The notes: generated by a model not told the origin, from the sequence alone. A stretch of DNA of 64,000 nt from Escherichia coli (GCF_048403405.1 NZ_CP183129.1); one strand, 5' to 3'. Shown: positions 61,158-64,000, numbered from the stretch's first letter. Numbers and translations are program-made.

Positions 61158-62423
61158 ATGGCTTCTACTTTTACCAGCGACACATTGCCTGCCGATCACA
61201 AAGCAGCTATCCGTCAGATGAAGCACGCGCTGCGGGCGCAGCTTGGCGACGTCCAGCAGATCTTTAATCAGCTAAGCGATGACATTGCCACGCGAGTGGC
61301 TGAAATCAACGCACTCAAAGCACAGGGCGATGCCGTCTGGCCGGTGCTGTCTTATGCCGATATCAAAGCAGGTCATGTTACTGCAGAGCAGCGCGAACAG
61401 ATTAAACGTCGCGGTTGTGCGGTGATAAAAGGCCATTTCCCCCGCGAACAAGCGCTAGGCTGGGATCAGTCGATGCTGGACTATCTGGACCGCAACCGCT
61501 TTGACGAGGTCTACAAAGGCCCCGGCGATAATTTCTTCGGGACGCTCAGCGCTTCACGTCCCGAGATTTACCCCATCTACTGGTCGCAGGCGCAAATGCA
61601 GGCTCGCCAGAGTGAAGAAATGGCGAATGCGCAGTCGTTTCTCAATCGTCTGTGGACATTTGAAAGTGATGGAAAGCAATGGTTTAACCCGGATGTGAGC
61701 GTCATCTACCCTGACCGTATCCGCCGCCGTCCGCCCGGAACGACCTCCAAAGGTCTTGGAGCGCATACCGACTCCGGGGCACTGGAACGCTGGCTGCTTC
61801 CAGCGTATCAGCGCGTTTTCGCCAACGTCTTTAATGGCAATCTGGCGCAATATGATCCCTGGCATGCGGCACATCGTACGGAAGTTGAAGAGTACACGGT
61901 GGACAACACCACCAAATGTTCCGTGTTTCGGACATTCCAGGGCTGGACAGCGCTCTCTGATATGCTGCCTGGTCAGGGGCTGCTGCACGTCGTGCCCATT
62001 CCTGAAGCCATGGCGTACGTACTGTTACGTCCGCTGCTTGATGATGTGCCGGAGGATGAACTGTGCGGCGTAGCGCCCGGAAGAGTATTGCCGGTATCAG
62101 AGCAATGGCATCCACTGTTAATTGAGGCGTTAACCAGCATTCCAAAACTCGAAGCCGGAGACTCCGTCTGGTGGCACTGCGACGTCATCCATTCCGTTGC
62201 CCCCGTTGAAAATCAACAGGGTTGGGGCAACGTGATGTACATTCCTGCGGCACCGATGTGCGAGAAAAATCTTGCCTACGCGCACAAGGTGAAGGCCGCA
62301 CTGGAAAAAGGCGCATCGCCGGGCGACTTCCCGCGCGAGGACTATGAAACAAACTGGGAAGGACGCTTTACGCTTGCCGACCTCAACATTCACGGTAAGC
62401 GAGCGTTGGGAATCGACAGCTGA
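61158..62423 (+). CDS. ybiU: DUF1479 family protein YbiU
   Basis: From ATG 61158 (MASTFTSDTLPADHKAAIRQMKHALR...), 421 aa. Confidence 0.92.
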   Translation: MASTFTSDTLPADHKAAIRQMKHALRAQLGDVQQIFNQLSDDIATRVAEINALKAQGDAVWPVLSYADIKAGHVTAEQREQIKRRGCAVIKGHFPREQALGWDQSMLDYLDRNRFDEVYKGPGDNFFGTLSASRPEIYPIYWSQAQMQARQSEEMANAQSFLNRLWTFESDGKQWFNPDVSVIYPDRIRRRPPGTTSKGLGAHTDSGALERWLLPAYQRVFANVFNGNLAQYDPWHAAHRTEVEEYTVDNTTKCSVFRTFQGWTALSDMLPGQGLLHVVPIPEAMAYVLLRPLLDDVPEDELCGVAPGRVLPVSEQWHPLLIEALTSIPKLEAGDSVWWHCDVIHSVAPVENQQGWGNVMYIPAAPMCEKNLAYAHKVKAALEKGASPGDFPREDYETNWEGRFTLADLNIHGKRALGIDS

Positions 62424-63493
62424 GTGTCGTACAGCCCTTCCCGTTCCACGGCGGTGTTCCCTTTTCCTGGGCGAACCCGCCGCACTGACTCCCGCACCGC
62501 CAATCGTCCGTGCAGCAGCAGCGAGCCCACCGGAGCATCCGGGCGAATCAGCCGCTGTTGCAACATTTGCACCGCTTCATTGCCTAGCTCATCGCGTGGC
62601 ACATGCACAGCCGTCAGGGGAACATCCTCGATTGCCGCAAGGTTAAAGCCGTCGATACTCATCACCGAGACATCCTGTGGTACGCGCAGACCACGACGAT
62701 GTAGCGCATTTACCGTTCCCGCCGCCATAAAATCCCCGCCGACCAGAAACGCCGTCGGCAACGTCTTGCCATTGGCGGCATCCAGCCACGCTCCGACCTT
62801 TTCTTCCGCTTCTTTAGCGCTAAAACTGCTGATATTCAGCAAATGACGGTCATGGTGAAAGGCCAGATTATGCTGACGCCATGATTCTTTAATCCCTGCA
62901 AACCGCTGCTCCATAGTGTAGCGGCGCAGGCACATCACATTCATCACCTCCCGGTGACCCATTTCAAACAGATAGCGGGCGGCGAACGCGCCAATTAACC
63001 GATGGTCCGGCGCAATCGCCGGGAGGCGCATTCGTTCATCACGGCAGTTGATCAGCACACAAGGCTTAGCGAGATCGGCGGCCAGATCATGGATGTGCGG
63101 ATCGTCAATCCCCAGCAGGATCGCCGCCTGCGTATCTGCTTCATTCATCCGCGAGAGAAATAGCGCGGGATCGCTGTCAAACTCCTCCAGCGCGCAGTAA
63201 CGCAGCCGCACTTCATGCGGCGATAACGCTTTGCTGATGCTCTGGATCACACGGTAATAAAAGATATCAGATCGTTGGTCAAAAGCGCGTTGCGGCGCGA
63301 AAATAATCAGGTTATTCAGCAACATACGACCTGCTGCCATGCCATCCATCACGCCCAACTCACGCGCGCAGGCCAGCACCTGTTCGCGAGCGCGTGCACT
63401 GGTATTCGCTTTGCCAGCCAGCACCCGCGAAACCGTACTCGGCGATAGCCCGGTACGTGCGGCGATATCGGCGATTTTCAGCTTCTTGTCCAT
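62390..63493 (-). CDS. LacI-family transcriptional regulator (accessory; specific name not assignable)
   Basis: From ATG 63493: MDKKLKIADIAARTGLSPSTVSRVLAGKANTSARAREQV... is a classic LacI/GalR N-terminal HTH followed by a periplasmic-binding-protein-like fold; 367 aa; 3' end overlaps ybiU by 34 nt. Confidence 0.8.
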   Translation of the reverse strand: MDKKLKIADIAARTGLSPSTVSRVLAGKANTSARAREQVLACARELGVMDGMAAGRMLLNNLIIFAPQRAFDQRSDIFYYRVIQSISKALSPHEVRLRYCALEEFDSDPALFLSRMNEADTQAAILLGIDDPHIHDLAADLAKPCVLINCRDERMRLPAIAPDHRLIGAFAARYLFEMGHREVMNVMCLRRYTMEQRFAGIKESWRQHNLAFHHDRHLLNISSFSAKEAEEKVGAWLDAANGKTLPTAFLVGGDFMAAGTVNALHRRGLRVPQDVSVMSIDGFNLAAIEDVPLTAVHVPRDELGNEAVQMLQQRLIRPDAPVGSLLLHGRLAVRESVRRVRPGKGNTAVEREGLYDTQLSIPNARLP

Positions 63494-63787
63494 TTTGTGA
63501 TCTGCCTCTAATTCGGAAATGACAGAATTTTCATGAGCAAAAAAGCCCATTCTGTCTGGCATTAAATCCATTTCAGTAATGTATATCAGTCACTCATGGA
63601 AAAACGTGCACAAAACCCGCTTTCTTTCGCTTTTAGGGTCTCTTACTGTGAATTGGTAGAACAACTTCCATACAAAAATAATGGAAAAATGAACAATAAA
63701 GACTTTATTTATCAAAAAGTTAAAAGTGGTGTGACAACTCCATTCTGACGTTGCCGCACAAACCCTATACCATTCTGTGGAGTGCAT

Positions 63788-64000
63788 ATGAGTCAGGGTA
63801 TCAATAACGATATGACTGCCAGTAAACCGCGCCATATCGTCAAAAATCTGCGTTGGTGGATACTGGTCCTTTTTTTGCTCGGTGTTACTGTCAACTACAT
63901 CACGCGTAACTCGCTGGGTATTCTCGCCCCCGAACTGAAAAGCAGCCTGGGGATTACCACCGAACAATATTCCTGGATTGTAGGTGCTTTCCAGCTCGCC
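63788..64000 (+). CDS. MFS transporter of the hexuronate/sugar-acid (ExuT-like) type, N-terminal 71 codons; continues beyond the window end
   Basis: Translation MSQGINNDMTASKPRHIVKNLRWWILVLFLLGVTVNYITRNSLGILAPELKSSLGITTEQYSWIVGAFQLA resembles the ExuT N-terminus (RW..I..V.LG....Y.TRN); GGAG RBS 6 nt upstream. Confidence 0.7.
   Translation, partial: MSQGINNDMTASKPRHIVKNLRWWILVLFLLGVTVNYITRNSLGILAPELKSSLGITTEQYSWIVGAFQLA

Follow-up and report, generated by a model that had tools for sequence, protein, structure and literature searches.

A three-gene module between ybiU and ybiT in Escherichia coli, predicted to feed a carboxylate-bearing alpha-glycoside into glucuronate catabolism

We analysed a 64,000-nucleotide (nt) stretch of the Escherichia coli chromosome, hereafter the window, that covers the gsi-iaaA-moeAB-fsa-ybiYWVU region, focusing on the locus that follows ybiU at its end. 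The DNA found here in addition to that of K-12 is a 5.2-kb module of three genes, encoding a LacI-family regulator, an ExuT-like major facilitator superfamily (MFS) transporter and a glycosidase of glycoside hydrolase family 31 (GH31). It is not the margin of a larger island, because in strain MS 69-1 only the GH31 gene separates the MFS gene from ybiT. Sequence comparisons make it probable that the module imports and hydrolyses an alpha-glycoside bearing a carboxylate, yielding glucuronate. Four lines of evidence link it to D-glucuronate: a fusion with uxuA-uxuB-uxaC-uxuR in Erwiniaceae, a positioned UxuR-type box, the carboxylate residues of the transporter and a rebuilt pocket in the GH31 enzyme.

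The segment from 62390 to 64000 is 100% identical in six complete genomes, one of them MS 69-1, where the order is ybiU, the lacI-type gene (minus strand), the MFS gene (433 amino acids (aa), plus strand), the GH31 gene (787 aa, plus strand), which begins 14 nt after the MFS gene, and ybiT (minus strand). Open reading frame (ORF) calls recovered the coordinates given in a first-pass annotation of the window, with ybiU followed by a convergent LacI-family gene that overlaps it by exactly 34 nt (62390-62423) and then by a divergent ExuT-like MFS gene that starts at 63788 on the plus strand and leaves the window after 71 codons (63788-64000). The K-12 order given in that annotation was also correct: in K-12, ybiT directly follows ybiU across a 240-base-pair (bp) spacer, in place of the regulator and transporter genes, and the locus is accessory relative to K-12. 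However, ybiT has not been displaced from the site, as had been supposed, but lies 5.2 kb on, behind the GH31 gene, in MS 69-1. Of the catabolic genes that were expected beyond the window, MS 69-1 has a single one, this glycosidase, which stands between the MFS gene and ybiT; the rest are the core uxaC and uxuAB genes, encoded elsewhere in E. coli.

The association with hexuronate catabolism recurs in several gene arrangements. In four Erwiniaceae loci and in locus L064, the LacI gene is missing, and the MFS-GH31 pair and uxuA(-uxuB)-uxaC are transcribed divergently, next to a UxuR-type regulator gene; the uxu/uxaC-type genes of locus L036 score above NCBIfam equivalog cut-offs. The Limnobaculum GH31 gene has uxuA, a uxuR-like gene, TRAP transporter genes, uxuB and uxaC as neighbours. 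Farther out, a GH31 homologue with 47% identity lies inside dctQ-dctM-GH31-dctP. Its neighbours are uxaC, a mannitol-dehydrogenase-family gene, an enolase-type dehydratase, PfkB and KDPG aldolase, and the whole forms a complete hexuronate route together with a carboxylate-type (TRAP) transporter. Another distant homologue adjoins uxaC. Other distant homologues occur without uronate genes, next to a PIG-L deacetylase, a GH63-like gene, ABC transporter genes or PGI, and some contexts are uninformative. In three of the distant loci (L101, L102 and L105), the GH31 gene is accompanied by a PIG-L-family deacetylase and by a further protein, about 620-650 aa long, which is GH63/GDE_C-like in L101 and L102 and has no Pfam match in L105; this co-occurrence hints at a related pathway for an N-acetylhexosamine-containing glycoside.

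To compare regulatory DNA across species, we aligned the region between the regulator and MFS genes from 18 genera and counted boxes over 73 regulator-bearing and 5 regulator-less loci. Each of the regulator-less intergenic regions contains one to three TTGGTnnACCAA-like palindromes and no LacI-type box. When this motif was checked against the 10-kb uxu locus of K-12, matches with at most two mismatches occurred only in the gntP-uxuA promoter region (two) and upstream of uxuR (one), and these promoters are known UxuR targets (PMC10016265). A UxuR-type box with at most two mismatches is also present at a fixed offset (+156 to +159 from the regulator start) in 21 of the 73 regulator-bearing loci. 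It is perfect in Hafnia and Enterobacillus, carries one mismatch in Pectobacterium, Budvicia and Serratia plymuthica, and is perfect or near-perfect at the same offset in Yersinia. The E. coli copy at 63651-63666 (AATTGGTAGAACAACT) has two mismatches to AATTGGTnnACCAATT, one of them in the core, and is the single match at this threshold in the 64-kb window (0.31 expected). Because of the core mismatch, UxuR control in E. coli is uncertain. A consensus scan also placed a sigma-70-like promoter for the MFS-GH31 operon at 63653-63682 on the plus strand (TTGGTA-18-AATAAT), with its predicted -35 hexamer inside the UxuR-type box; the scan gave one site where 1.4 were expected, which is weak by itself, and the surrounding block is conserved across genera.

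The transporter is an ACS/SLC17-type MFS protein, matching Pfam MFS_1 (9.6e-59) and the D-galactonate transporter subfamily of NCBIfam (TIGR00893, 2.4e-79), although its score of 267 falls under the cut-off of 395 for the latter. It is 43% identical to K-12 ExuT over its full length and, because identity is only 43%, is by sequence a paralogue of ExuT and not an orthologue; exuT itself is retained at its own locus elsewhere in E. coli, including K-12. Among solved structures, DgoT is the closest (1e-38), with VGLUT and sialin next. A structure-sequence alignment showed that Arg47, Tyr79, Arg126 and Glu133 of DgoT are kept as R40, Y72, R119 and E126, whereas Asp46, the second proton site of DgoT, is replaced by Thr39. 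In DgoT, Arg47 and Tyr79 contact the substrate carboxyl, and Arg126 and Glu133 make up the coupling pocket (PMC6532931). The carbohydrate-acid link first proposed for this divergent pair, a LacI-type regulator with an ExuT-like permease, is upheld.

The GH31 enzyme retains all the domains of its family (PF13802, 2e-36; PF01055, 5e-88; PF21365, 1e-22; PF17137, 5e-6), and its catalytic nucleophile D419 (TWNDNNE) and acid/base D490 (WSGDN) align with D416/D482 of YicI and D405/D472 of YihQ. Direct reading of the N terminus (MKTLKNWTLHKQSAHH...) revealed no signal peptide, and the enzyme is predicted to be cytoplasmic. Public annotations label it an alpha-glucosidase or alpha-xylosidase, but it belongs to no known GH31 subtype by NCBIfam, scoring 306 against a cut-off of 800 for MalA, 230 against 606 for YicI-type alpha-xylosidase and 138 against 553 for NF007746. 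Its best Protein Data Bank (PDB) matches, endoplasmic reticulum (ER) glucosidase II and FjDex31A, are about 30% identical.

To place the enzyme within the family, we scanned 1.84 billion representative proteins, took the best 150 hits longer than 600 aa and classified 118 sequences, 104 as members of the large clade to which it belongs and 14 as canonical GH31. The 104 clade sequences carry fixed differences from the canonical set: D to S306, I to S307, D to G308, Y to R316, I to N346, D to K348, D to H355, M to N420 and F to R545. The clade signature reads LSSGY, NIKP and WNDNNE, compared with LDIDY, IVDP and WNDMNEP in canonical enzymes. At the end of strand beta-3, the sugar-pocket Asp (the position of Asp404 in GAA) is Asp in 14 of 14 canonical sequences, whereas the 104 clade sequences have Ser (87%) or Gly. 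In the enterobacterial enzyme, it is Ser306, within an invariant FQLSSGY motif, and aligns with the pocket Asp of glucosidase II, FjDex31A and YicI. Mapped by motif, the changed positions appear to match GAA Asp404, Ile441, Asp443 and Met519. In GAA, Asp404 and Asp443 touch a ring-mimic ligand, and Met519 forms part of the wall of the neighbouring pocket (PMC7357040). As many as four acidic residues have thus become neutral or basic, and Arg316 and Arg545 have been gained at positions that were not acidic. Such pocket changes are those expected for an anionic sugar and, because they fall at ring-pocket positions, favour glucuronate as the glycone.

The regulator gene (62390-63493, minus strand) encodes a 367-aa LacI-family protein with a LacI helix-turn-helix (HTH; PF00356, 7e-8), Peripla_BP_3 (PF13377, 2e-27) and Peripla_BP_1 (PF00532, 5e-15). 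It aligns over its full length with the PurR and CcpA structures, PurR being the best PDB match (1e-20). No orthology to a named regulator (RbsR, CytR, PurR, GntR, IdnR and others) was found, as the top NCBIfam matches, RbsR (114 bits against a cut-off of 382), CytR and PurR, are all far under their cut-offs, and the protein is not mentioned in the searched text or supplements of a survey of LacI regulons (PMC4052901). We place its start at Met27 of the longest ORF (63493) because this is where homology across the 73 loci sets in, because the HTH starts at residue 33 of the long ORF and because PGAP calls the same start in strain M160133. RefSeq starts for the same protein vary (386 aa in MS 69-1, 367 aa in M160133 and 441 aa in some records), and the longer calls are disfavoured since the 386-aa start in MS 69-1 would put a conserved operator inside the coding sequence; the start codon is accordingly corrected here for some RefSeq annotations. 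Given this start, the divergent spacer is exactly the 294 bp first reported (63494-63787). At its other end, the protein has a family-conserved tail of about 20 aa (...VRESVRRVRPGKGNTAVEREGLYD), ending in GLYD, that lies beyond the usual LacI core, plus a 10-aa extension that runs antisense into ybiU, accounts for the 34-nt overlap and is common only to E. coli, Kluyvera and Pseudocitrobacter.

The divergent region had seemed to lack a clear palindromic operator, but one exists and is visible only through cross-species comparison. The candidate repressor site O1 at 63519-63534 (ATGACAGAATTTTCAT), 26-41 nt upstream of the regulator start codon, conforms to a 16-bp palindrome, ATGAAAAnnTTTTCAT, that is found at the same offset in 72 of the 73 regulator-bearing loci. 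A related second candidate, O2, lies 77 bp from O1 at 63596-63611 (ATGGAAAAACGTGCAC; consensus ATGAAAAnnnTTGCAa). An O2-type site occurs at offset +101 to +103 in most loci; that of E. coli is degenerate, with five mismatches to the O1 consensus. Both boxes are missing from 5 of 5 regulator-less loci. Because the boxes co-occur with the regulator gene, we assign them to the LacI-type repressor as its putative cognate operator pair, an assignment made by co-occurrence only; O1 sits where it would if the repressor gene were autoregulated. Within the window, O1 has three matches at up to two mismatches, compared with 0.49 expected. The two further matches, at 13405-13420 and 21224-21239 (one and two mismatches), bring the total slightly high and are probably due to chance.

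Three other conserved blocks stand out in the divergent region. One, TTTGTGATC at 63494-63502, adjoins the regulator start codon, is invariant in the 18-genus alignment and is a candidate translation-initiation region or CRP-like half-site. The others are ACAACTTCCATAC at about 63660-63675 and GTGTGACAACTC at about 63735-63747. TGTGA motifs in the region resemble CRP half-sites, but their right or partner halves are poor, and we assigned no CRP site. The divergent regions of Citrobacter werkmanii and Enterobacter kobei are nearly identical to each other and differ from those of C. amalonaticus and E. coli, which suggests that alleles of the module have been swapped between genera by recombination at a conserved site.

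These features fit the following mechanism, in which transport is predicted to be inward. The ExuT-like protein would take up a carboxylate-bearing alpha-glycoside by proton symport, and the cytoplasmic GH31 enzyme would cleave it by a retaining mechanism with D419 as nucleophile and D490 as acid/base. The D-glucuronate released would enter the core UxaC-UxuB-UxuA-KdgK-Eda pathway encoded elsewhere; it would most probably be the glycone, and the enzyme then an alpha-glucuronidase. The LacI-type repressor, bound at O1/O2, would control its own gene and the MFS-GH31 operon, holding expression off until the glycoside or a derivative appears, and the UxuR box at the operon promoter would add a second lock in many Enterobacterales, with the box partly degenerate in E. 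coli. Candidate natural substrates include xylan-derived aldouronates and glucuronosyl-glycerol, glucuronosyl-inositol or other alpha-glucuronosyl head groups of plant, fungal and bacterial glycolipids. Enterobacter asburiae JDR-1 reportedly ferments the aldouronate 4-O-methylglucuronoxylose by unidentified genes, and E. asburiae carries the triad.

The individual parts of this scheme differ in strength. That glucuronate is the glycone is tentative, somewhat short of probable. We would give similar standing to the broader proposal that the enzyme founds an uncharacterised, widespread GH31 clade, with a pocket converted from acidic and hydrophobic to polar and basic, and that it may be the first GH31 alpha-glucuronidase, a carboxylate counterpart of YihQ. 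Several observations pull the other way. The sequences fit glucuronate as the glycone or as the aglycone alike; no solved structure is closer to the GH31 enzyme than about 30% identity; and the distant contexts lacking uronate genes indicate that specificity may vary within the wider clade. On the regulatory side, the centre of the O1 palindrome is A/T-rich (AA, AT or TT), without a conserved central CG. A central CG is typical, though not universal, in LacI-family operators, and its absence tells somewhat against a repressor assignment made by co-occurrence. The core mismatch in the E. coli UxuR box and the degenerate O2 likewise imply that regulation in this species may depart from the consensus.

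The strongest competing explanation reverses the roles of the two sugars: the substrate would be an alpha-glycosyl-uronate, with a neutral or amino sugar (glucose, GlcNAc or GlcN), alpha-linked to glucuronate, as the part split off by the GH31 enzyme, and glucuronate as the aglycone seen by the transporter. It would explain the uxu link and the anion-type transporter equally well, the nearest characterised relatives of the enzyme are alpha-glucosidases (glucosidase II, FjDex31A and MalA), and two distant clade members adjoin a PIG-L-family deacetylase, which suggests an N-acetylhexosamine within their substrates. However, the Enterobacterales module has no deacetylase, and the equivalents of GAA Asp404, Ile441 and Met519 are changed clade-wide, which is easier to explain by a new glycone than by a new aglycone. 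We consider this reversal unlikely. Less credible still, and in our view quite improbable, is a plain alpha-glucoside or alpha-xyloside operon whose transporter family and uxu neighbourhood are coincidental. The public annotations name enzymes of this type, and the catalytic Asp pair and most GH31 motifs are intact, but the MalA and YicI-type scores given above are far under their cut-offs, the pocket Asp is lost while the transporter keeps its carboxylate-binding residues, and several independent arrangements show the uxu linkage, together with a UxuR-type box of conserved position.

A hydrolase of the sulfoquinovosidase type, with a sulfonated glycoside as substrate, would also account for an apparently anionic alpha-glycoside, YihQ being a GH31 enzyme, but is extremely improbable given the signature residues, the weak similarity to YihQ (1.6e-31, compared with 6e-80 for alpha-glucosidases) and the lack of sulfoglycolysis genes near any examined locus. 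Specifically, Speciale et al. in 2016 reportedly defined the sulfonate-binding triad of YihQ as Arg301/Trp304/Tyr508. The Arg aligns with R316 of the module enzyme, whereas Trp304 and Tyr508 align with Phe319 and Phe523 and are unmatched. Release of glucuronate from a carboxylate-bearing alpha-glycoside remains our preferred reading.

To assess how widespread the module is, we searched complete E. coli genomes with the 62390-64000 segment. The module is present in 577 of 5426 (10.6%), always on the chromosome and, by this search, in single copy; it is almost always intact, at least 80% of it being covered in 575 genomes. Among the matches listed, the triad occupies the site between ybiU and ybiT in Enterobacter, Klebsiella/Raoultella, Citrobacter, Kluyvera, Leclercia, Kosakonia, Pluralibacter, Phytobacter, Silvania, Pseudocitrobacter and Intestinirhabdus; it lies between moeB and ybiT in Cronobacter, Cedecea, Buttiauxella, Atlantibacter, Mangrovibacter and Dryocola; and in Yersinia (including Y. 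pestis), Serratia, Pectobacterium, Dickeya, Hafnia, Rahnella and Budvicia the three genes stay together at another genomic location. Salmonella enterica subsp. salamae has a GH31 orthologue with 88% identity. In Cronobacter sakazakii, a TPS/filamentous-haemagglutinin-like gene lies between the GH31 gene and ybiT (11111-13255 of its locus).

This distribution does not support the strain-specific, acquired island suggested by the first-pass annotation, since the same triad is at the same site in many genera of Enterobacteriaceae, without mobility genes or odd composition. No integrase, transposase or tRNA gene was found at the module in MS 69-1. Its GC content is 54.3%, and GC at third codon positions (GC3) is 62-65%, compared with 53-65% for the neighbouring genes. 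Identity at four-fold sites to 14 other genera is 41-60%, equal to that of flanking core genes and saturated, and two module-bearing E. coli lineages show differences of 1.4-2.6% in the module and 0.4-5.4% in the flanks. We reject a recent horizontal island on the flank-like composition, the lack of mobility genes and the saturated synonymous sites. Because composition is flank-like, mobility genes are lacking and the module has diverged together with its flanks, we conclude that it is most probably an old module at its ancestral ybiT-adjacent site, kept by a minority of E. coli and lost from K-12 by deletion.

The alternative origin, that the module was absent from the E. coli ancestor and gained once, early, in a sub-lineage, by homologous replacement at the ybiU/ybiT flanks from a Kluyvera- or Pseudocitrobacter-like donor, is rather unlikely, although several findings lean towards it. 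The LacI and MFS proteins are 91% and 94% identical to those of Kluyvera cryocrescens, compared with 75-83% and 86-90% for Citrobacter, yet the flanks are closest to Citrobacter; the derived 10-aa extension and 34-nt overlap are common only to Kluyvera and Pseudocitrobacter; and only 10.6% of E. coli genomes have the module. Conversely, synonymous sites are saturated relative to every sampled genus, as in the flanks; composition is flank-like, and within E. coli the module has diverged in step with its flanks; those flanks stay E. coli-type as far as their final codons; an orthologue also occurs in Salmonella subsp. salamae; and deletions do happen at this site, as a ybiU-removing deletion in about 22% of genomes attests. 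An old, ancestral module still has two findings to contend with: the mismatch between the LacI/MFS and flank affinities makes an ancient exchange between genera likely, and no significant remnant of the module was found in the K-12 ybiU-ybiT spacer. A short MAFFT match there to the 3' end of the GH31 gene was discarded, since its local alignment score was 26 where shuffled sequences gave a mean of 22 and reached 32. The C termini of ybiU and ybiT were likewise abandoned as a marker of deletion versus insertion because they are too variable across genera.

The ybiU gene spans 61158-62423 on the plus strand, by ORF call and annotation, and in an alignment of K-12 with MS 69-1 the divergent stretch begins at the last four codons of ybiU and ends at the final one or two of ybiT. 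The left junction, where module-bearing and K-12-type sequences begin to differ, therefore covers the last four codons and stop of ybiU (62411-62423), with the protein ending in GIDS in the window and in GMDV in K-12. Three states of the ybiV-ybiT interval occur: ybiU with the module; ybiU alone, with REP-containing spacers and sometimes IS621; and neither. About 1180 of 5426 complete E. coli genomes (about 22%) lack ybiU, and in an APEC O2:K1:H5 strain only a 199-bp spacer separates ybiV from ybiT (1646-4253 of its locus); this is a second, larger deletion at the same site, removing ybiU. The K-12 spacer is highly polymorphic, only 2687 genomes matching it over at least 80% of the query. In the K-12-type strain VE-T10, it contains the transposase gene of IS621 (IS110-like; 2911-3891 of its locus).

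Several species carry broken copies. The MFS gene of Pantoea conspicua is split by a frameshift (4769-6017 of its locus), the GH31 gene of gamma proteobacterium L18 is broken into two ORFs (9001-11367), and Limnobaculum has an orphan O1 box with a remnant regulator start (8800-8850) upstream of a GH31 gene that lacks both regulator and MFS. The split genes and orphan box show decay of the module in some species. A record of E. coli IH5 (NZ_CP168949.1) contains a stretch in which dozens of unrelated, truncated gene pieces adjoin, 1 kb from the MFS and GH31 genes among them; it looks like an assembly artefact, and this partial match was left out of consideration.

There is nothing unusual in a LacI/MFS/glycosidase operon as such, and RefSeq annotates the locus generically. 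As far as literature searches reach, the glucuronate assignment, the rebuilt GH31 pocket signature and the operator pair with its UxuR box appear to be new: full-text searches returned no alpha-glucuronidase assigned to GH31, and nothing relevant on the ybiU/ybiT locus or on a glucuronosyl/GH31/sulfoquinovosidase link. If the prediction holds, it would add a new activity to a heavily studied family and supply a candidate for the missing gene in enterobacterial use of alpha-glucuronides, such as the aldouronates released from xylan by acid. Enterobacterales that include about 11% of E. coli, many of the listed isolates being human clinical, could then use alpha-glucuronides, and biomass conversion would profit from a ready-made set of transporter, enzyme and repressor/operator, which would also serve as an inducible switch. 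The apparent gap in K-12 may be read as a lost ancestral catabolic module that varies between lineages. The three ybiV-ybiT states are easily typed and suggest a niche trait in the retaining lineages, namely access to plant- or host-derived glucuronate.

Among known systems, the module most resembles E. coli uidABC, in which a dedicated transporter and a cytoplasmic glycosidase also feed glucuronate to UxaC/UxuAB under dual control by a local repressor and UxuR, whose regulon includes uidA, uidB and uidC (PMC10016265). The uid system acts on a beta linkage with a GH2 enzyme, a GPH transporter and the TetR-family UidR, whereas an alpha linkage is predicted here, with a GH31 enzyme, an ACS-type MFS transporter and a LacI-family regulator; uid is also experimentally established, whereas the module is predicted from sequence. 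The yih system, with YihQ, is likewise a GH31 enzyme for an alpha-glycoside with an anionic C6 group, has its importer alongside and sets a precedent for a charged-sugar pocket, but it belongs to another GH31 clade, its signature residues are not shared and, unlike it, the module has no dedicated downstream pathway beside the enzyme, because the product would enter the core pathway.

The transporter belongs with ExuT and DgoT (TC 2.A.1.14, SLC17), sharing 43% identity with the former and the carboxylate-binding and coupling residues of the latter, but its predicted cargo is a glycoside and not a monosaccharide acid, and it has Thr in place of DgoT Asp46. E. coli YicI-YicJ has the same two-gene arrangement of a transporter and a cytoplasmic GH31 enzyme; YicI, however, retains the pocket Asp (FDCFW), is 23% identical to the module enzyme and is paired with a GPH-type transporter for a neutral sugar. 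Finally, the xylan enzymes of GH67 and GH115 and the GH4 enzyme AguA of Thermotoga are alpha-glucuronidases that free glucuronate or methylglucuronate, for example from xylan aldouronates. They have the same activity as that proposed here for the GH31 enzyme, but unrelated folds and families.

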